DNA from: Patescibacteria group bacterium
GTDB taxonomy: Bacteria > Patescibacteriota > Patescibacteriia > Patescibacteriales > JBAZCA01
Length of the DNA stretch: 64,000 bases
Direction of reading: 5' to 3'
Assembly: GCA_041671125.1 (NCBI GenBank)
Contig: JBAZCA010000006.1
Location: forward strand, 3,184-67,183
The notes beneath the pieces were generated by a model that was not told the DNA's origin, made no database searches, and saw only the letters and a program-made list of their open reading frames with translations. The position numbers and the translations under genes are program-made. Shown piece by piece: positions 10,768 through 50,885 of the stretch. Positions within the stretch are counted from its first letter, which is position 1. Each line of letters begins with the position of its first letter.

Positions 10768-12177
10768 TTATCTCCCCCCCCTTGAAACCACCGTCGCCAC
10801 GGTTTTTAAGATAATGGACAGATCCAGATAAATGGATCTGTTTTTTATATAAAAGAGGTCGTATTGCAGTTTCTTTAAGCTGTCTTCGTAAGACGGGGAA
10901 TGGTACTGTCCGGAAATCTGGTCCCAGCCGGTGGCGCCGGGCTTAACGAGCGTCCGTTCGCGGTAAAAAGGGATTTGCTTTTCCAATAAAGCGACCAGCT
11001 CCGGCCGTTCAGGCCGCGGGCCGACGAAACTCATTTCGCCTTTTAAGATGTTAATCGCCTGGGGGATTTCGTCAAGGCGGGTTTTCCGCATGAAACCGCC
11101 GAAGCCGGTTACGCGCGGATCATCCTCAACTGTCGGCGAACGGTCGTTGTCGTTTTCGCGCATGGAGCGGAATTTAAGCATTCGGAATTCATTCCCGTTT
11201 TTTCCGCTCCGGCTCATGCGGATGAAAACCGGCCCCCGGCTTTGGATTTTTATAATGATGGCAATTAACGGCCAGAAGGGAAGGGTAATAACGAGAATGG
11301 CGAGCGAGAGAATTATATCATAAGCCCGCTTAAAGAGGTCAAAGCCGCTTTTTTTTCCTTCGTTCATGTTTTCAAGAAACCACATCTCGCTGATAGCTTC
11401 AACCGGCACTTTGCCGGTAAGCTGTTCGTAAAAGTTCGCCAGACTCTGATACTTAATATTTAAAGGTAGACAGGAAAAAAGCGCTGTCCGAAGTTCGCCG
11501 GATTCGCGGGGATTTTCGGAAAAAATTAGCGCGGAAATTTTATTTTTTTCCGCCATATTTTTTAGCTCGCTGATTCTAATGATTGGCGGAAAAGTGAATT
11601 GATAACCCTGTTTATTAGCGGTTTCCGCCATGTTTTGGCCGGCTTGGTTTGCGTCGGCACTATTTTTTTCTTCAACAATAAACTTAACCTCATATCCGAG
11701 ATGGGGTTTTTTTATGAGATAAGCAATTAGTTCGCGGGACTGGCGGTTTAAACCGGCAAAAGCCAGGTTGGTTTTTGGCAGGCGCGACTTTAAAAGCCAG
11801 TTGCAGGCGCGCCGCCAGAGGATAAAAATAATGCCGTAGATGAAGATGAAAATTATCAGGTTTGTTTTTGGGGCAATGCCCATGCCGGGCGAAGCGTAAA
11901 AAAAGATGACCGAAAGCAGGGCGGCGACCAAGAGGCTTTGGGTTATTTTCCGGATGAACTCCGATCCATTAACCGCGGCTTTTAAATCGTAGAGGCCGGA
12001 GATGTAAAAAATAATTATCCAGCCGAAAAAAATGGCTGTAAAAGGAAAGAAATGATCCTGCCAGGTAGCGGCCGTCGGCAGGCTGAAATAGCGGAGGCTG
12101 AGGGCGAGATAAAGCGCCAAATATAGGAAAACAAAGTCGCCGAAAAGTATGGTGAATTTTTTTAAACGGTTATTCAT
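10768..12177 (-). CDS. Polyprenyl-phosphate glycosyl-1-phosphate transferase (WbaP/PglC-type sugar transferase)
   Basis: Four N-terminal TM segments plus a C-terminal Bac_transf domain (KRAYDIILSL, MLKFRSM, DEIPQAINILKGEMSFVGPRP). Confidence 0.85.
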   Translation of the reverse strand: MNNRLKKFTILFGDFVFLYLALYLALSLRYFSLPTAATWQDHFFPFTAIFFGWIIIFYISGLYDLKAAVNGSEFIRKITQSLLVAALLSVIFFYASPGMGIAPKTNLIIFIFIYGIIFILWRRACNWLLKSRLPKTNLAFAGLNRQSRELIAYLIKKPHLGYEVKFIVEEKNSADANQAGQNMAETANKQGYQFTFPPIIRISELKNMAEKNKISALIFSENPRESGELRTALFSCLPLNIKYQSLANFYEQLTGKVPVEAISEMWFLENMNEGKKSGFDLFKRAYDIILSLAILVITLPFWPLIAIIIKIQSRGPVFIRMSRSGKNGNEFRMLKFRSMRENDNDRSPTVEDDPRVTGFGGFMRKTRLDEIPQAINILKGEMSFVGPRPERPELVALLEKQIPFYRERTLVKPGATGWDQISGQYHSPSYEDSLKKLQYDLFYIKNRSIYLDLSIILKTVATVVSRGGR

Positions 12178-15654: not shown

Positions 15655-15730
15655 GGTAAAAAATCCTTAAAAAGGATTCCTGGCCTTTTAAAAAGGCCTG
15701 TCCCTGCTCGGGGAAAAATAAATAATAATT

Positions 15731-15812
15731 AAATTCAGCATTCTGGCTTTCCGCCTTGGGCGGATTACAGTTGCGGCACAGCGCCTGATTTTCACAGGAC
15801 TTTCCTGAATTT
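15731..15812 (-). promoter_or_regulatory. Cobalamin riboswitch aptamer (compact, short P6; class-II-like)
   Basis: Minus strand reads AAAUUCAG-GAAAGUCCUGUGAAAAUCAGGCGCUGUGCCGCAACUGUAA-uccgcccaaggcgga-AAGCCAGAAUG-CUGAAUUU. It contains the conserved GGAAA, GUGAAAAUC, CCGCAACUGUAA and B12-box-like AAGCCAG elements, and an 8-bp P1. Confidence 0.75.
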
Positions 15813-15824
15813 AATCTATTGTTA

Positions 15825-15854
15825 ATAGTAGCGGGTATAAATTTTACTGTCAAC
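15825..15854 (-). promoter_or_regulatory. Sigma70-type promoter for the riboswitch operon
   Basis: Minus-strand TTGACA (15854-15849), 18-nt spacer, TACTAT (15830-15825). Confidence 0.5.
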
Positions 15855-20207: not shown

Positions 20208-21938
20208 ATGCGGACTATTTACCTGCAATTCAGGGAAGCGGCCGAAAAATATAATAGACGTCCGATCGCGCGTTGGAAGCGGAAAAAACGCTGGCACTCC
20301 TTAAGTTACCAGAAATTCCTTAAAAAAGTGGACTTGCTCTCCGGAGGATTTAGAAAAGAGGGGATCAAAGAAGGGGATCGGGTGGCGATAATGAGCGAGA
20401 ATTGCCCGGAGTGGCTCATGACTGACCTCGCGTTAAATAAAATCGGCGCAGTAAGCGTCCCTATTCACATAACCTCCAACAGACCGTTCATTGAGTATAT
20501 CGTAAAAGATTCCATGAGCGGTTTTTTTATTGTCTCGGAAAAAGTTTTAAAAAAACACGAGGAAACCATAAAAGAGATCGCCAGGAATTTTAAGGTGGCG
20601 GTGATAAGGCGGGACGCGCCCTTTTTTAGCCGGTCCGCTGATGAGGCTGACATGGACGTTAATGCCGCGTCAGCCATCGGCTTAAGGGAAGAGCTTGGGA
20701 AAGAATATCTTGATTTTGATAATTTATTATCCCGGGAATATTCGGACGAACCGGCGGCTGACGGGAAACTCGCGAGCCTTATTTATACCTCTGGGACGAC
20801 TGGCGACCCCAAAGGCGTGATGCTTACCAATGAAAATTTTTTAACGAACGCTTTCGGCGCCATGGAAAAAATAAAAGTTTTTCCGCGGGACGTATTTTTG
20901 TCTTTTCTCCCTCTGTCCCATGTGCTTGAACGGCTGGCCGGCAGCTATGTGCCGATTCTTTCCGGCGCGGAAGTCGCTTACGCGCCGGATATTAAGGAGC
21001 TCGCCCGCAGTTTTTCTGAAGTCAAACCGACGATTTTTACCGGCGTGCCGAAAATATTTGAGAACAGTTACGAAAAGATCCGCGCGAAACTGGAAAAGAG
21101 CAATCCTCTCATTAAAAAGTTTTTCTATTATTCGCTAAATAAAAAAAGTCCGGCCTTTGCCAGGGCATTAGCCGATAAGTTCCTCTACGCGAAGATAAGG
21201 AAAAGTTTCGGCGGCCGTCTGCGTTTCGCTATTTCCGGGGGCGCGGCCATAAACGAACGGATAATAAAATTTTTCCGGAAAATCGGCGTAAAGATCGTGG
21301 AAGGCTACGGCTTAACCGAAACCTCGCCGATCGTGGCCATGAATACCCTTTTAGAGTCGAGAATCGGTTCAGTCGGCCGGCCGCTTCCGGGCGTGGAAAT
21401 TAAAATCGCTCCGGATAAAGAAATACTGGTAAAGGGAAAAAGCGTTATGTCCGGCTACTGGAACAAAGAGGAGATGACCGGCACCCATTTTACCGAAGAC
21501 GGCTGGTTTAAGACCGGCGACCTAGGATTTTTAGACCGGGAAAATTTTTTAACCATTATCGGCCGGAAAAAGGAAATGATTGTTACGACCAACGGCAAGA
21601 ATATCAGCCCGGAAAAAGTGGAGGCCATAATAAACCTGAACCCTTTAGTTAGCCAGTGCCTGGTAACCGGGCACAAAAAACCTTATTTAGCCTGTCTTAT
21701 CGTTCCCGAGTATGATCGGATTAAAGAAAAATACGGAGCGGATTGCGATTTAGAAAAATGCCTGGCCGATGAGATGGAAGAAATAAATAACCATCTCATG
21801 TCCCATGAACGGATAAAAAAAATCGCCGTCATCGGAAGTTCCTTTACGGTTGAAGCCGGCGAGCTTACCCCGACGCTAAAAGTGCGGAGAAGCGTTATTG
21901 AACATAAATACCGGAGGGAGATTGAGCGGTTGTATTAA
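20208..21938 (+). CDS. Long-chain acyl-CoA synthetase (AMP-forming ligase)
   Basis: ORF 20172..21938 (TTG), with ATG at 20208 preferred. AMP-binding motif LIYTSGTTGDPKGVML, plus GYGLTETSP and TGDLG. Confidence 0.85.
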   Translation: MRTIYLQFREAAEKYNRRPIARWKRKKRWHSLSYQKFLKKVDLLSGGFRKEGIKEGDRVAIMSENCPEWLMTDLALNKIGAVSVPIHITSNRPFIEYIVKDSMSGFFIVSEKVLKKHEETIKEIARNFKVAVIRRDAPFFSRSADEADMDVNAASAIGLREELGKEYLDFDNLLSREYSDEPAADGKLASLIYTSGTTGDPKGVMLTNENFLTNAFGAMEKIKVFPRDVFLSFLPLSHVLERLAGSYVPILSGAEVAYAPDIKELARSFSEVKPTIFTGVPKIFENSYEKIRAKLEKSNPLIKKFFYYSLNKKSPAFARALADKFLYAKIRKSFGGRLRFAISGGAAINERIIKFFRKIGVKIVEGYGLTETSPIVAMNTLLESRIGSVGRPLPGVEIKIAPDKEILVKGKSVMSGYWNKEEMTGTHFTEDGWFKTGDLGFLDRENFLTIIGRKKEMIVTTNGKNISPEKVEAIINLNPLVSQCLVTGHKKPYLACLIVPEYDRIKEKYGADCDLEKCLADEMEEINNHLMSHERIKKIAVIGSSFTVEAGELTPTLKVRRSVIEHKYRREIERLY

Positions 21939-28282: not shown

Positions 28283-28350
28283 TAGAAATATCCCGCCGGG
28301 GCGTCTCTACAACTGTCTGAAAAATTTTTTAGTAAAGGACTATTAAAAGG

Positions 28351-28386
28351 GTAGAAACGCCCCGGCGGGGCGTTTCTACGTTTTTA
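28351..28386 (+). terminator. Rho-independent terminator built from a family-D palindrome
   Basis: Perfect palindrome gtagaaacgccccggcggggcgtttctac followed by gttttt. A degenerate half-copy lies at 28283-28310. Confidence 0.7.
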
Positions 28387-28693: not shown

Positions 28694-28768
28694 TCCCGGG
28701 TAGCGCAGCGGTAGCGCAGCTCGCTGTTAACGAGTTGGTCGTCGGTTCGAATCCGACCCCGGGAGCCA
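28694..28768 (+). tRNA. tRNA-Asn (anticodon GTT), CCA encoded
   Basis: Manual cloverleaf: acceptor tcccggg/cccggga, D stem gcgc/gcgc, anticodon loop ctGTTaa, T arm gtcgg-ttcgaat-ccgac, discriminator g, CCA. Confidence 0.93.
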
Positions 28769-37388: not shown

Positions 37389-37414
37389 GTAGAGACGCAA
37401 AATTTTGCGTCTAT
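37389..37414. repeat. Family-D palindrome (gtagagacgc...gcgtcta)
   Basis: agacgcaaaattttgcgtct is a perfect palindrome lying 14 nt after the GIY-YIG stop. Confidence 0.7.
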
Positions 37415-45624: not shown

Positions 45625-46455
45625 ATGGAAAAAGAAATAATAAAAACTCTGGCGAAAAATTTTGAATCAATCGGCCAAAAAACCGATGACGGTTTGGAAT
45701 TTTGGCTGGCGCGCGATTTGCAGCATTTGCTCGGATATGACGAATGGAGGAATTTTCAAAATATCATATCCAAAGCGAAAACAGCCTGCGAAGTTTCGGG
45801 GCAAAAGATTGCCGATCATTTTGTTGATGTCAACAAAACGATAAAAATGCCCAAAAATGCCCAAAAAATTGTGCCGGACATCATGCTCACCCGCTACGCC
45901 TGCTATCTTATCGCCCAAAATGGCGATCCCAAAAAAGAAGAGATCGCTTTTGCCCAAACGTATTTTGCCGTTCAAACAAGAAAGATTGAAATTATCGAGC
46001 AAAGGATTTTGGAATCCGAAAGAGTGCAAGCCAGGAAAAAACTGGCGAAGACCGAAAAAGAACTTTCCGCGGTTATTTTTGAACAAACTGGGGATAACCG
46101 GAATTTTGCGTTCATTCGTTCCAAGGGCGACAAAGCGCTTTTCGGCCGGACGACGCAGGATATGAAAGCGCGATGGGGGATAAAAGACAAAAAGCCTTTG
46201 GCGGATTTTATGCCGACTATTCTTCTCAAAGCCAAGGATTTCGCGGCTGAAATTACGATTTTTAACGCCAAAAAGAGAGATATGCGGACGGAAAGTGAAA
46301 TTTCCAAGGAACATATAACGAACAATTCCAGTGTCAGAAAAACTTTGCAAAGCCGTGGGATCACGCCGGAAAATTTACCGCCGGAAAAGGATGTGAAAAA
46401 GGTGGAAAGAAAAATCAAGTCGGAAGGAAAGAAATTATTGAAAAAGAAAAAATAA
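45625..46455 (+). CDS. dinD: DNA-damage-inducible protein D homolog
   Basis: [36 protein letters not shown] and [10 protein letters not shown] parallel E. coli DinD along the whole 276 aa. Confidence 0.8.
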
Positions 46456-46466
46456 TCGGGTATAAT
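46438..46466 (+). promoter_or_regulatory. Consensus sigma70 promoter, copy 1 of a duplicated module
   Basis: TTGAAA, 17-nt spacer, TATAAT. The 29-nt string ttgaaaaagaaaaaataatcggStataat is repeated at 47506-47534. It overlaps the last dinD codons. Confidence 0.7.
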
Positions 46467-46529
46467 ATGCGCAGGGTAGGGACGCCTGCCTACCGGACAG
46501 GCAGGCATTGTAATGTGTCTCTGCAGGAT

Positions 46530-46600
46530 AAATAATAAAATCGAACCCCGTTAAATCCGCCCGGCGGATATGCGTCGGGATAAATACAAAAACATGAAAG
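46530..46600 (+). promoter_or_regulatory. Conserved 71-nt leader, copy 1
   Basis: 65 of 71 nt are identical to 47545-47615, and all 6 differences are transitions. It ends in acaaaaacATGaaag. Separated from the promoter by a copy-specific insert (46467-46529) with a GC hairpin. Confidence 0.6.
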
Positions 46601-46652: not shown

Positions 46653-47486
46653 ATGGATAATAAAATTGCCATTTTTGAAAACTTCAAAATCCGTCGTCAC
46701 TATGACGAAAAGGCGGAGGTTTGGTATTTTTCTGTGGTGGACATAATCCGGGCATTGTTGGAACAGCCAGATTTTCAAACGGCCAGGAAATACTGGAACA
46801 AACTCAAAGAGAGGCTTAAGAATGAAGGAAGTGAGTCGGTGACAAAATGTCACCGACTGAAATTGGAGGCAGCTGACGGGAAAAAGTATCTTACTGATGT
46901 AGCCAATCCCGAAACTATTTTACGCATTATTCAATCGGTGCCGTCCAAGAAAGCCGAACCGATTAAATTGTGGCTGGCTAAGGTTGGATATGAGCGAATT
47001 CAGGAAATGTCCGATCCTGAAAAATCATTGAATCGGGCCAGAGAGAACTGGAAAAATCATGGTCGCAGCCAGAAATGGATCCAGCAGAGAATGATGGGGC
47101 AGGAAACCAGAAATAAGCTGACGGATTATTGGAATGAACACGGAGTTAAAGAAAAAGACGAATTCGCGATTCTCACTAATATTATCCATAAAGAGTGGTC
47201 CGAGCTGTCTGTCAAAGAACACAAAAACCTAAAAGGGTTAAAAGCGCAAAACTTGCGCGACCATATGAGCGAGGCGGAATTGATTTTCACGGCTCTGGCG
47301 GAAATGTCAACCCGGCAGATTGCCGAAACCGATAACGCGGAAGGAATGGCGGAGAATAAATTAGCCGGAAAAAGAGGCGGCGGAATAGCCAAAAGAGCCA
47401 GAATTGACTTGGAACAGAGAACCGGTCAGAAAGTAATTTCCGGAAAGAATTTTTTGATGAAAAGAAACGTTAAGAAATTGAAATAA
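46653..47486 (+). CDS. Bro-N domain protein (prophage antirepressor-like)
   Basis: N-terminal FENFKIRRHYDEKAEVWYFSVVDIIRAL is Bro-N-like. The C-terminal DYWNEHGVKEKDEFAILTNIIHKEW...NLRDHMSEAEL region is typical of this family. Confidence 0.7.
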   Translation: MDNKIAIFENFKIRRHYDEKAEVWYFSVVDIIRALLEQPDFQTARKYWNKLKERLKNEGSESVTKCHRLKLEAADGKKYLTDVANPETILRIIQSVPSKKAEPIKLWLAKVGYERIQEMSDPEKSLNRARENWKNHGRSQKWIQQRMMGQETRNKLTDYWNEHGVKEKDEFAILTNIIHKEWSELSVKEHKNLKGLKAQNLRDHMSEAELIFTALAEMSTRQIAETDNAEGMAENKLAGKRGGGIAKRARIDLEQRTGQKVISGKNFLMKRNVKKLK

Positions 47487-47505
47487 CGCGAAAAAGCTGC
47501 TGTTG

Positions 47506-47534
47506 TTGAAAAAGAAAAAATAATCGGCTATAAT
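47506..47534 (+). promoter_or_regulatory. Consensus sigma70 promoter, copy 2
   Basis: TTGAAA, 17-nt spacer, TATAAT. Differs from copy 1 at a single position. Confidence 0.7.
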
Positions 47535-47544
47535 ATAGTTAGTC

Positions 47545-47615
47545 AAATAATAAAATCAAACCCCATTAAACCCGCCTGGCGGATATGTGTCGGGATAGAT
47601 ACAAAAACATGAAAG
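47545..47615 (+). promoter_or_regulatory. Conserved 71-nt leader, copy 2
   Basis: See copy 1. Contains the ATG at 47609. Confidence 0.6.
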
Positions 47616-47630
47616 CCGTCTCTCTCCCCA

Positions 47631-50600
47631 GTGGAATACTTGCTCCGCAAATTCCACGGGGTAAACTCTCTCTCTCTCTCTCTTAGTAAAGACGCATTGC
47701 AATGCGTCTCTACCCAAAATCTAAAATTTTCCAGATTTGTTTTTGTCTTCCTGTTATTTTTGGGAAGTTTTTTTGTTTTCGGAGCGGGGAAGGCGAGCGC
47801 GGTTTACCCCGTTGCCGGCTGGCGTAAATTTCTTCTGACTGGACTGTTATGCAGTTTTTTTATTTTTCTCGGCGGACTGGCTTTTGCCTCTCCGGCATAC
47901 GGGGCGACGTATTATGTTGATAAAACTTGTGTTACAAATGGGAATGGTAGCTATAAATCTGGCGGTGGTTGCGCTGATGTTGTCGGGGAAGAGGGTCCTT
48001 ATAATACTTTAACAAATACGCCAACTGGAAATATCTATTTATTCGCTGGAGGAAAAACGCATAATTATAATACAAATCTAAATTTTACAAACGCTAATAC
48101 AGAAATTGGTTCTTATGACTTGGCTACCGGATTGCGTTTAACTGATGGAAGTAATAAGGCTATTCTTAATTTTTCATCCGGTTATGGAGTAGCAACTGCT
48201 GTTTCTACTTCGGGAGGAAATGTTCTTTCAAATCTGGAGATAATAAGAGGCGACATAACCGGCACCGCAGTGAGTCATGGATATTGGGTTGGCTCATTTA
48301 CCATGAGTCACGTTGAGGTGAGTGGCGGATTGTATGGAGCAAACATAAGACCCAGTAGCGGTACACCTTCAGATGTGACAATAGAAGACTGCACCTTTGA
48401 AAATGCCGGAGGTATCCAGTCGGCATTACAGGTTAAAGGGTTGAATTCTACTACATTAGCAACAAATGTGACCATTCTAGATACTATTATTAGGGATAAT
48501 TCGAATGTAGGAGGAAATTTTGAGAATATTAATAACCTAACCATGGAAAGGGTTACTTCTACAGGCAATAAGGTTGGCTTGAGTTTTAAATATATCACTA
48601 ATTTTTCCATAACAGATAGTTCTGGAAATAATAATGGTGATGGAATCAATACTGGTAGTGGGATTAGATTTGATTCGGGATGTTCAAATGGTATTGTGCG
48701 GGGATGTGAGGCAAGTGAAAACTCAGAAGACGGATTCACTTTCGTGGATACGGTTCCATCAGTTGCTCCGCAAGGTATTGATCTTTATACGTGCAAGGCG
48801 CATCTAAATGGAGATTTGGATGATACGACCATTCCTTCTAACGCGGGGGATGGATTTACCGTGCACTCATCTGCTAATGACATAAATGCTTATTATAGTG
48901 ATTTTTCCCTTAACCATAATAGCGGTGCTGCAGTCGTTGGAACTTCCTCAGGGAGCCTTATAAATTGTGTTCTTTCGGGCAATGGGTATGATGATGGCGT
49001 TGAAGGTTTTAACGGACCTTACGAAAATCGAGGTGGACTAGCGATACAAAGCACTGATAATTGGACGGTAAAAAATAGCATTATATCAAAAAATTGGCCC
49101 AGAGAAATAAAATTAGATACCAACAGCAAGAGCCATTTTATTGGTTATAATAATAACTATTACAACACAGAAGGAGAAGACGAATCTTTTTCTTTAGATG
49201 GTGGAGCAACTTTTTCTGGAAGCTATTCAGCTTTTCTGGCCGGTCTAGTTATCCCGGCTTTAGATAATAGTAGCCTATATGTCGATGCTAAATTTATTTC
49301 CTCCTCTAACTTTAACTTGCAATCCACTTCCCCCGCCATCGACTCCGGCACCGATGTCTCCCTCACCACCGACTACGCCGGCAACCCGATCTATGGCACT
49401 CCCGACATTGGCGCCTATGAATACCAGCCGCCCTACACCATAGGAACAACCGCCGTCCCCCAAACCGGCTCGGTTCGGATTTACTCTAACGGCAAGTACC
49501 GGGCGCTCATTGCCTCTACTACCGCTGACACTATTACTCCGGCCAACTTCTCGGTCGTACCCGCCGGAGGCGGGTACTATACCGCCTCCACCTCGGCATT
49601 CATGGATTTAAACATTGATAATTGGGAAATGACCGGAAACAAGAATAAATCCTGGACAGCAACGTCCTCGGCCGACGGAGTCGGCCAAACTCACGCCACC
49701 AGCACAGTATTCACTATCGGCGATTTAACCCCGGATAGCTACTACACGTTCAAGATTGACGGTTCGGCCACCACTACCGCTATCACCGGTTACGGAACTA
49801 CGACCTGTTCCCCGAGCATCGGGGACAACACCAATATCGCCTGCCTCTCCGATTCCTCGGGCATTGTCCAATTCACCTACTCCGGCGGCTATTCCACTCA
49901 TACGTTTTCCCTGGAAAAGGACATAACCAGCCCGGCCGGGTTTACTGTCTCTTCGCCAGCCAATAATACGGTTAACTCCGACTCCCGCCCGGTTCTCTCC
50001 TGGAACGCCTCGTCTGACACAGAATCAGGAATAGCTAAATATAAACTCTACATAGATAATGCCCTGGACTCTGACAATATTTCTAATACTGCCACCTCCC
50101 AAACCCCGGGTCAGAACCTCGCCTGCGGTTCCCATAGCTGGTATGTCACAGCTGTGGACAATAACGGCAATACTACTAACTCCAACACGTTTAACTATAC
50201 CCGGGACTGTAATACGATTCCAATCTACTTGCTAAACAGCCAGAATAATAATAACAATACTGCCAATACCAATAATGACAATAATAGCGATACCAGTCCG
50301 GATGATGACGCGTCAGGAGATGATAGTGAGGGAAGTGATGTTAGTGATAATCAGGAGAACAAAACAGCAACCCAGCAAAACAGCGTAGAGACGCCCCGGC
50401 GGGGCGTCTCTACGCTGGAAAAGCTAATGTCCGAGGCCAGAGAGATAATCGCGATTAAAACCAATACCCTAAATAATTTCATCGCCAACGGCACGGACAC
50501 TACCAAAACCCTCGGCGCGGGCGAAAGAGCCGGAGTAACCGCCTCGTTTAAATCGGCCTTTGGCCGCAACCCGGCTACTGAAACCGACTGGCAGGACGTA

Positions 50601-50885
50601 ATTAAAATCGCCAACGGAAGATGGCCCGGCCAAAAGAACGAAAAAACCGAGGCTAACGCCTCGGCCGCTTTCAAAAAGATTTACCAAAGAGAACCGGACA
50701 AAACCAATCCGCATGACAATAACGCTATTGCCATAATCTCTTACGGCCTCCGGCCAGCCAGCCGTAACCTCAATTCAGAGAAAAAATCTATTCAATTCTT
50801 CAAAAACATCTACGGCTACGCGCCGAAATCGGCGATGGCCTGGGACATTGTGAGAGCGATTGCCTATTCCGGGGCGAAACGGTAG
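47631..50885 (+). CDS. Large secreted right-handed beta-helix (PbH1/pectate-lyase-fold) protein with Ig/FN3-like domains, Asn/Asp-rich linker and conserved C-terminal tri-repeat module
   Basis: Two signal-peptide-like hydrophobic segments. Repeated NxGxGI/beta-helix turns (SGNNNGDGINTGSGIRF, SENSEDGFTF, NAGDGFTVH). The start codon is uncertain (GTG 47631, TTG 47694, or ATG 47609 after a frame change). Confidence 0.7.
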   Translation: MEYLLRKFHGVNSLSLSLSKDALQCVSTQNLKFSRFVFVFLLFLGSFFVFGAGKASAVYPVAGWRKFLLTGLLCSFFIFLGGLAFASPAYGATYYVDKTCVTNGNGSYKSGGGCADVVGEEGPYNTLTNTPTGNIYLFAGGKTHNYNTNLNFTNANTEIGSYDLATGLRLTDGSNKAILNFSSGYGVATAVSTSGGNVLSNLEIIRGDITGTAVSHGYWVGSFTMSHVEVSGGLYGANIRPSSGTPSDVTIEDCTFENAGGIQSALQVKGLNSTTLATNVTILDTIIRDNSNVGGNFENINNLTMERVTSTGNKVGLSFKYITNFSITDSSGNNNGDGINTGSGIRFDSGCSNGIVRGCEASENSEDGFTFVDTVPSVAPQGIDLYTCKAHLNGDLDDTTIPSNAGDGFTVHSSANDINAYYSDFSLNHNSGAAVVGTSSGSLINCVLSGNGYDDGVEGFNGPYENRGGLAIQSTDNWTVKNSIISKNWPREIKLDTNSKSHFIGYNNNYYNTEGEDESFSLDGGATFSGSYSAFLAGLVIPALDNSSLYVDAKFISSSNFNLQSTSPAIDSGTDVSLTTDYAGNPIYGTPDIGAYEYQPPYTIGTTAVPQTGSVRIYSNGKYRALIASTTADTITPANFSVVPAGGGYYTASTSAFMDLNIDNWEMTGNKNKSWTATSSADGVGQTHATSTVFTIGDLTPDSYYTFKIDGSATTTAITGYGTTTCSPSIGDNTNIACLSDSSGIVQFTYSGGYSTHTFSLEKDITSPAGFTVSSPANNTVNSDSRPVLSWNASSDTESGIAKYKLYIDNALDSDNISNTATSQTPGQNLACGSHSWYVTAVDNNGNTTNSNTFNYTRDCNTIPIYLLNSQNNNNNTANTNNDNNSDTSPDDDASGDDSEGSDVSDNQENKTATQQNSVETPRRGVSTLEKLMSEAREIIAIKTNTLNNFIANGTDTTKTLGAGERAGVTASFKSAFGRNPATETDWQDVIKIANGRWPGQKNEKTEANASAAFKKIYQREPDKTNPHDNNAIAIISYGLRPASRNLNSEKKSIQFFKNIYGYAPKSAMAWDIVRAIAYSGAKR
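47666..47683 (+). repeat. (CT)9 dinucleotide tract
   Basis: ctctctctctctctctct read directly. Lies between ATG 47609 and the body of the 1084-codon ORF. Confidence 0.95.
47686..47713. repeat. Family-D palindrome at the 5' end of the surface-protein ORF
   Basis: gtaaagacgcattgcaatgcgtctctac: 14-nt arms with one mismatch around a perfect 20-nt core. Confidence 0.75.
50382..50416. repeat. Family-D perfect palindrome embedded in-frame in coding sequence
   Basis: agcgtagagacgcccc-ggc-ggggcgtctctacgct (16-bp arms), translated as SVETPRRGVSTL. The core matches the terminator palindrome at 28351-28379 except for one base per arm. Confidence 0.9.

Follow-up and report, generated by a model that had tools for sequence, protein, structure and literature searches.

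A stretch of 64,000 nucleotides (nt) from a Patescibacteria group bacterium (GenBank assembly GCA_041671125.1, contig JBAZCA010000006.1, positions 3,184 to 67,183 of the forward strand) was analysed. It is referred to below as the window, and positions are counted from its first letter. The element under study is a CT dinucleotide tract, (CT)9, at the 5′ end of a gene whose product is predicted to be a secreted right-handed β-helix protein with a choice-of-anchor Q domain. The tract is probably a slipped-strand translational phase-variation switch in the 5′ coding region of this large gene, because an otherwise identical assembly carries (CT)10, which puts a conserved ATG in frame with the gene. 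A switch of this kind had been put forward earlier from the letters of the window (the original prediction), and the natural (CT)10 allele supports that interpretation. The elements on which the argument turns are as follows.

47609..47611, + strand: conserved ATG, the proposed true start; it opens a 25-codon open reading frame (ORF) at (CT)9 and the full-length ORF at (CT)10.
47613..47759, + strand: stop-free stretch of the main frame, from the leader to the signal-peptide block; its last 17 codons (47709-47759) specify STQNLKFSRFVFVFLLF.
47631..50885, + strand: β-helix protein gene, 1084 codons at (CT)9, 1092 amino acids (aa) from ATG 47609 at (CT)10.
47666..47683, + strand: (CT)9 tract, the proposed hypermutable element; predicted ON at 7, 10 and 13 units; predicted OFF at 9 and 12 units (immediate stop) and at 8 and 11 units (stop after 13 codons).
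47684..47689, + strand: double stop TAG TAA in the ATG frame (TAA at 47687-47689), the OFF terminator, directly abutting the tract.
47760..47903, + strand: long conserved signal-peptide block LGSFFVFGAGKASAVYPVAGWRKFLLTGLLCSFFIFLGGLAFASPAYG, starting at TTG 47760; the mature sequence ATYYVD begins at 47904.

Tract lengths were compared across related genomes, as had been proposed, and (CT)9, (CT)10 and (CT)13 were found. The ENA contig (L001) is identical to the window and has (CT)9. Protein P0005 (JGI) matches at every one of the 1084 residues; since this identity spans the tract-encoded residues, the JGI assembly must also carry (CT)9. The contig JBAYJZ010000020.1 of NCBI assembly GCA_041664845.1 (L008), which carries protein P0006, aligns end to end (10,786 bp) with the window; there is no mismatch, and the only gap, of 2 nt, amounts to one extra CT. 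In its (CT)10 allele (L008:8206-8225) the conserved ATG shares the frame of the long ORF through all 879 codons up to where the contig stops, and the fused product foretold from the window is present there (...RGKLSLSLSLSKDALQCVSTQNLKFSR...). On this 10.8-kilobase (kb) background the CT repeat is the sole polymorphic site, and L008 has the predicted ON form of it. The consensus assemblies vary in tract length (9 versus 10 units), and relatives do not simply lack the tract. Neither the predicted full-length ON protein nor the small OFF peptides expected from other tract lengths had an exact match on record, and look-ups of P0003, P0004, P0005 and the 277-aa Bro-N protein likewise returned no record. 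Look-ups via neighbouring genes led to short Logan contigs only, none of which extends to the tract.

The arrangement described in the original prediction, with ATG at 47609-47611, (CT)9 at 47666-47683 (18 nt) and TAG at 47684-47686, was confirmed in the sequence. Translation of the ATG frame gives a 25-aa peptide, MKAVSLPSGILAPQIPRGKLSLSLS, terminated at TAG 47684, and the 1084-codon ORF (47631..50885) lies at +1 offset to this frame, as the ORF listing shows. Of the non-ATG entries that had been named for the long ORF, GTG 47631 and TTG 47640 are in frame as given; the TTG placed at 47694 is actually at 47697, and the in-frame TTG 47760, the start in the NCBI annotation, had been omitted. 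The first in-frame ATG of the (CT)9 ORF is at 48303, codon 225, and the main frame is free of stops over 49 codons (47613-47759). The repeat sits between the start codon and the body of the ORF, and its unit size is not divisible by 3. When versions of the tract were built in silico, gain of one CT unit or loss of two fused the ATG to the protein as had been claimed, (CT)10 and (CT)7 each giving an uninterrupted ORF. The (CT)13 construct likewise gave a single uninterrupted ORF from ATG 47609, and the (CT)8 and (CT)11 versions met a stop 13 codons past the tract.

The tract is not a product of chance, since the 12-mer CTCTCTCTCTCT has a single site in the 64-kb window, the tract itself, where 0.09 is expected, and since the run exceeds the longest dinucleotide run in first-order Markov simulations (mean 4.4 units, maximum 7). 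It is also the sole dinucleotide repeat of at least 5 units in the window. As to mononucleotides, the sole G/C homopolymer of at least 8 in the window is C8 at 10774-10781. It lies in the final four codons of the gene 10768-12177 on the minus strand (...RGGR before the stop), so that slippage there would alter only the extreme C-terminus.

A paralog has a different repeat; it lies on the L002 contig, the only one returned when genome contigs were scanned for further family members or strains. Its product P0002 is a different choice-of-anchor Q protein whose first 55 residues match the signal-peptide block of the window. The two blocks are about 92% identical in nucleotides, the differences being mostly synonymous (hand count), and the bodies of the genes differ. 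The L002 start ATG corresponds to TTT 47757 in the window, and the TTG codon that follows it is conserved. About 55 nt 5′ of this ATG lies a G11 tract, which a multiple alignment of the leaders places at the position homologous to that of the CT repeat. ATGs further upstream in L002 open a 43-codon ORF with its stop just past G11, and G10 or G13 would fuse them to the main ORF. A scan of metagenome contigs added L004 and the distant L005. L004 is the L002 locus assembled from another sample; over 3,854 nt the two are set apart by 3 mismatches and 1 indel, every one of which falls within 12 nt adjoining the G tract (L002:7936-7959, L004:1951-1975). After G11, L002 reads T3A8 and L004 reads ATTTAGAAGAAT. 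These differences could reflect a real mutation hotspot or a post-homopolymer sequencing error.

L005 has the same junction of SPAYG with ATYYVD, behind a short signal peptide (MKYLFLILFFIASPAYG followed by ATYYVD). An exact 14-nt match, AAAATTTAGGGATA, is shared by L005:309-322 and L002:7960-7973, just 5′ of the signal peptide. In L005 the preceding ORF ends in this match (...KNLGIKE and stop) and overlaps the ATG of the β-helix gene.

The comparison with L002 also bears on where translation starts. The 17 codons 5′ of TTG 47760 in the window and of the ATG at L002:8001 align gap-free in the main frame (STQNLKFSRFVFVFLLF and KNQNLGILRFLAVFSIM, respectively), with a BLOSUM62 sum of 31; the other two frames give 3 and -14. 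Of 5000 column shuffles, one scored as high (p = 0.0002), and the aligned codons include an Arg written as AGA in one gene and CGT in the other. Conservation of these codons at the protein level indicates a translation start further 5′ than those picked by the annotation pipelines. With its G11, L002 has no ATG, GTG or TTG in this frame 5′ of the first 10 of the 17 codons (KNQNLGILRF), so these codons are reachable only from the upstream ATGs after a change to G10 or G13. The segments of the predicted window product are MKAVSLPSGILAPQIPR, the extension DALQCVSTQNLK and the mature N-terminus ATYYVDK....

Shine-Dalgarno sequences were considered as support for one or other start and set aside, the genome showing none. 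All 45 other long ORFs surveyed in the window have a first in-frame ATG with an A/T-rich upstream region and no Shine-Dalgarno sequence, though ATG was the selection criterion in this survey and the frequency of non-ATG starts is therefore outside what it measures. Start contexts such as those at 20208, 31432, 32542, 34649 and 45625 are A/T-rich, often with T at -1 and -2, and several genes have a TATAAT-like box 7-10 nt 5′ of the ATG. This pattern suggests leaderless or near-leaderless mRNAs.

The region in front of and around the tract contains further elements.

47506..47534, + strand: sigma-70-type promoter TTGAAA-17 nt-TATAAT with 11/12 consensus matches, the predicted driver of the leader and the gene.
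47545..47615, + strand: conserved leader of about 65 nt ending in ATGAAAG, 92% identical to 46530-46600 and about 90% identical to the Moranbacteria contig L006.
47627..47661, + strand: hairpin CCC-A-GTGGAAT/ATTCCAC-GGGG with 11-nt arms and a 13-nt loop, ending 4 nt 5′ of the tract.
47686..47713, + strand: palindromic element GTAAAGACGCATTG/CAATGCGTCTCTAC ('family D'), missing from the L006 copy of the module.
28301-28379, 37389-37398, 46476-46485, 47686-47713 and 50385-50413: dispersed copies of the palindrome.

The conserved leader that had been reported is real, 46435-46468 matching 47503-47536 and 46530-46600 matching 47545-47615. The upstream copy (copy A), about 1 kb 5′, has its own promoter at 46438-46466, again with 11/12 consensus matches, in front of the Bro-N gene 46653..47486; its ATG at 46594 opens a 12-codon ORF only. 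Copy A has a 53-nt palindromic insertion (46469-46521) directly after the -10 box, and its homology to the other leader is lost just past ATGAAAG. The -10 region ATCGGCTATAATATA is also found 5′ of the paralog in L002. The leader holds a perfect palindrome, CCGCCTGGCGG, at 47572-47582, which looks like an operator; both window leaders carry this operator-like form, CCGCC(C/T)GGCGG.

Downstream of ATG 47609 the order is hairpin 47627-47661, TAAA, (CT)9, TA and palindrome 47686-47713. The first hairpin occurs as an identical inverted repeat in L006 and appears in both the minimum-energy and the centroid folds, and the whole leader folds with z = -3.5 against shuffled sequence. The second hairpin, also noted in the original prediction, has 14-nt arms that are 93% complementary. 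This palindromic element makes a net difference of 21 nt to L006 and is therefore in frame, reading SKDALQCVST in the main frame. It belongs to a family of the form GTAGAGACGC-(spacer)-GCGTCTCTAC, with 9 half-sites in the window against 1.56 expected. Two copies lie within the β-helix ORF and are translated in frame, that at 50385-50413 giving VETPRRGVSTL in a low-complexity linker. Such dispersed palindromes bring to mind repetitive extragenic palindromic elements and also the Rickettsia palindromic elements, which are found inserted in coding sequence. A further, weak terminator-like hairpin at 47747-47777 (CTTCCTGTTATTTTTGGGAAG followed by T7) overlaps TTG 47760; it may be a mere by-product of the GSFFVF codons or may affect initiation at that TTG.

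Two other roles for the repeat region were tried and rejected. A promoter-spacer switch does not fit, as the tract starts 132 nt past the promoter and no promoter-like + strand site spans or flanks it; a search of the + strand over 47540-47760 found none. A known structured RNA was not found at the leader or tract at the Rfam gathering threshold, and L006 gave nothing relevant at E<=1. The only Rfam or ARAGORN matches in the window are an AdoCbl (B12) riboswitch at 15693-15832 (- strand, 61 bits) and a tRNA-Asn(GTT) at 28694-28768 (+ strand).

The module recurs in another genome. A word-indexed search with the hypothetical ON N-terminus returned only P0007, a 68-aa ORF of Candidatus Moranbacteria RIFOXYA2_FULL_43_15. 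The corresponding contig L006 and the identical L007 carry the same -10 region, leader, ATG and hairpin, followed by (CT)13. About 7 of 70 leader positions differ between the window and L006, and none of the 57 nt from the ATG to the tract (19 codons after the ATG, hairpin included), which are 100% identical. The L006 ATG opens a 68-codon ORF that is in frame with a recognisable but decayed copy of the N-terminal region (QNIK...AFSMSGF), and we read this ORF as a remnant of the 5′ end of a module-plus-gene unit. The downstream gene is different, coding for a 1375-aa DUF2341 protein with its own ATG and a terminator-like hairpin ahead of it. All three leader copies, two in the window and one in L006, lie 3′ of a Bro-N or KilA-N gene. 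The L006 KilA-N protein shows no sequence relationship to either Bro-N protein of the window, so the module was not merely inherited together with an orthologous neighbour.

Between the 68-codon ORF and the DUF2341 gene, L006:1093-1205 is a structured stretch with a long imperfect inverted repeat at 1113-1160; its GGGACAA...TTGTCCC followed by T5 looks like an intrinsic terminator or attenuator and has no Rfam match. A conserved small protein encoded from the ATG was rejected, as the three ORFs (12, 25 and 68 codons) share the fixed codons of the module only. With the 68-aa P0007 as query, an exhaustive HMMER search gave no further ORF beginning MKAVSLPSGILAPQIPRGK, and two scans of viral contigs with leader and hairpin patterns gave no matches.

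The proposed course of events would be as follows. Transcription would initiate from the TTGAAA-17-TATAAT promoter at 47506-47534, and translation at ATG 47609, crossing the 19 fixed codons with the hairpin and then the CT repeat. Given 7, 10 or 13 units, translation would continue in frame through the N-terminal extension and the signal peptide to give the 1092-aa protein (ON). With 9 or 12 units it would terminate at the TAG-TAA abutting the tract, and with 8 or 11 units 13 codons further on (both OFF); in the OFF states there would be at most weak initiation at the in-frame TTG and GTG codons. Gain or loss of CT units in replication would flip lineages between the states, so that a population would hold cells that express the surface protein and cells that do not. 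We infer three points of this scheme: initiation at ATG 47609, frequent and reversible switching in the population, and expression in step with tract length.

Several observations weigh against this scheme. In the start-context profile ATG 47609 scores -2.4, below 96% of the training starts, and is no better than TTG 47760 at -0.4; both fall in the lower tail of real starts. A tract-independent short form is possible, since the NCBI pipeline places the start at TTG 47760 and the paralog has its own ATG at the corresponding position. Identity to the paralog falls from about 92% to about 45% just 5′ of TTG 47760. Neither of the other two leader copies has its ATG joined to the gene that follows; the ORF opened is 12 codons long at 46594 and 68 in L006. 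Three of the five assemblies of the two loci (CT and G11) are in the OFF state, and the difference of 9 versus 10 units rests on consensus assemblies. The ON form would have two hydrophobic segments before the cleavage site, which is unusual. The ON precursor would have an extended signal peptide of the N1-H1-N2-H2-C type; peptides of this type occur in autotransporters, whose passengers are also β-helical.

The strongest alternative, though an unlikely one, is that the tract lies in a 5′ untranslated leader and the protein is made from TTG 47760, the ORF from ATG 47609 being incidental or a regulatory upstream ORF. Tract changes would then be neutral or would modulate expression via leader length or RNA structure. 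The start in NCBI protein P0004 together with the paralog ATG, the sharp fall in nucleotide conservation 5′ of that start, its slightly higher start-context score and the conserved ATG that is not the start of the downstream gene in copy A or L006 would all agree with this, and 5′-untranslated-region (5′-UTR) repeats that control expression are documented (PMC12721329). It is opposed by the similarity of the main-frame protein, which runs 17 codons further 5′ and is unexpected for a UTR, and by the main frame being open back to the leader with the 21-nt net insertion in frame. Moreover, the natural variant restores precisely the ATG frame, and the tract is outside the promoter spacer, with no promoter-like + strand site between 47540 and 47760.

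A translational switch also accounts better for the region than a second alternative, in which promoter, leader, ATG, hairpin and (CT)n form an element of their own, whether a small RNA, a leader-peptide attenuator or one end of a mobile cassette tied to Bro-N/KilA-N genes, and the frame relation is coincidental. A near-identical unit does stand before a different gene in another genome, where the terminator-like hairpin GGGACAA...TTGTCCC TTTTT precedes that gene's own ATG; all three leader copies follow a Bro-N or KilA-N gene, and the leader folds better than shuffled sequence (z = -3.5). We nevertheless regard a separate element as improbable to a high degree, given that there is no Rfam match in the window (gathering threshold) or near the L006 module (E<=1) and that the three ATG-initiated peptides share fixed codons only. 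The L006 ORF, which runs in frame into an N-terminal remnant, is a better fit to a decayed gene copy, and the open main frame and the 17-codon conservation would be left unexplained.

It is least probable, to the point of being scarcely credible, that 9 versus 10 units is an assembly or sequencing artefact (polymerase chain reaction stutter, low coverage) at a tract stable in nature: the sequences are metagenome assemblies and one related contig name records about 3.8x coverage, but the repeat is the sole differing site in 10.8 kb, the G11 locus shows the same pattern, 13 units occur in the module of another genome, 9 units are common to two assemblies, and even stutter captured in a consensus needs a substantial minority allele.

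Beyond the switch at this one gene, a wider arrangement is offered tentatively, as something possible that we hold in some doubt. The promoter, operator-like palindrome, leader, ATG, hairpin and repeat may constitute a portable phase-variable module placed before different large surface-protein genes, with the repeat motif turning over ((CT)n in the window and Moranbacteria, G11 in the paralog) and the genes sharing a recombining, extended signal peptide in two parts. This would amount to a family-wide contingency system of episymbiotic bacteria of the Candidate Phyla Radiation (CPR).

Switches of this kind are known from other bacteria. Helicobacter pylori has several genes with 5′ CT repeats, among them sabA, sabB and hopZ besides oipA (hopH). 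The mechanistically closest analogue of the window tract is oipA; there, as proposed for the window, a CT tract sits in the 5′ coding region, either before the signal sequence or inside it. According to PMC10564699, slipped-strand mispairing in the 5′ CT repeat of oipA switches the surface protein between an in-frame ON and a truncated OFF form. Unlike the H. pylori Hop genes, the gene studied here codes for a β-helix and choice-of-anchor Q protein of Patescibacteria and has its tract bracketed by two hairpins in a module common to different genes and genomes. Membership of the Hop/outer-membrane-protein family was considered and rejected, as Pfam gives only PF13229 and NCBIfam only choice-of-anchor Q; the likeness is mechanistic only.

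In Neisseria opa, gain or loss of units of (CTCTT)n in the signal-peptide coding region turns translation ON or OFF. The idea of contingency loci in small host-dependent genomes applies here too, and there are examples in Haemophilus, Campylobacter and Bartonella. As in opa, the window repeat would lie within the leader-peptide coding sequence of a surface-protein family member. The opa, Haemophilus and Campylobacter switches differ in using pentamers or homopolymers, in being experimentally proven and in occurring at many loci per genome, whereas here a dinucleotide is found at one locus in the 64-kb window. In Mycoplasma, whose species are likewise surface-dependent and have small genomes, the vlp, vsp and vlhA families combine a conserved 5′ region and signal peptide with divergent bodies, and 5′ repeats govern their expression. 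The window gene and its paralog resemble these in having a 5′ block about 92% identical on different bodies; the Mycoplasma repeats are mostly promoter poly-A or GAA and act on transcription, whereas the present tract lies past the promoter and the ATG.

Repeats can also act from the 5′-UTR, as does the poly-G tract of Moraxella catarrhalis uspA1. PMC12721329 describes a 5′-UTR repeat with an RNase III element that controls expression in Haemophilus influenzae. The window tract would be like these, lying between the transcription start and the main ORF, if the real start were TTG 47760; it differs from them in that the evidence favours translation through the tract and in that no RNA-processing element was identified. 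The closest CPR report found concerns a Gracilibacterium surface-protein gene with PTD repeats that is locally hypervariable and for which slipped-strand mispairing is discussed (PMC6851277). That locus is an in-frame 9-mer array inside the protein, varying in sequence and number, and not a frame-shifting 5′ tract.

The β-helix gene carries the Pfam domain PF13229 (Beta_helix) and the NCBIfam choice-of-anchor Q domain NF041518. Its protein clusters with proteins of Patescibacteria metagenome-assembled genomes (90%-identity cluster, with members from several assemblies). Core metabolic genes flank it, and genes for RhuM and Bro-N proteins precede it. This one gene has received three calls: 1084 aa from GTG 47631 (ENA, JGI), 1041 aa from TTG 47760 (NCBI PGAP, P0004) and 647 aa from ATG 48303, inside the gene, in the contig with (CT)10. 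ATG 47609 was chosen by no caller, even where it is in frame.

Towards its 3′ end the gene has an Asn/Asp/Ser-rich low-complexity linker (about 50240-50330) around NSQNNNNNTANTNNDNN. Assembly GCA_041664845.1 breaks at this linker; L008 ends at window position 50244, and the partial proteins P0006 and P0003 overlap by about 40 residues. The break is a hint that another site in the gene varies or is difficult to assemble.

In agreement with the view that the case is undocumented for CPR, a literature search found no report of repeat-driven frameshift phase variation in CPR/Patescibacteria. The mechanism itself is well known, and what is new, as far as that search goes, is its probable occurrence in this group. 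CPR/Patescibacteria are thought to live attached to hosts and to rely on large, poorly understood surface proteins. Natural alleles predicted to be ON and OFF, on a 10.8-kb background that is otherwise identical, provide a concrete and testable example of a probable contingency locus in an uncultivated ultrasmall groundwater bacterium. If the portable module is real, it would vary the surface of these cells, e.g. in attaching to hosts or evading phages. Such genes are truncated or given wrong starts by gene callers, and consensus assemblies of metagenomes conceal the variation. The 5′ repeat tracts of CPR surface genes are open to systematic screening. The stochastic surface switching of small-genome pathogens probably operates in environmental episymbionts too.

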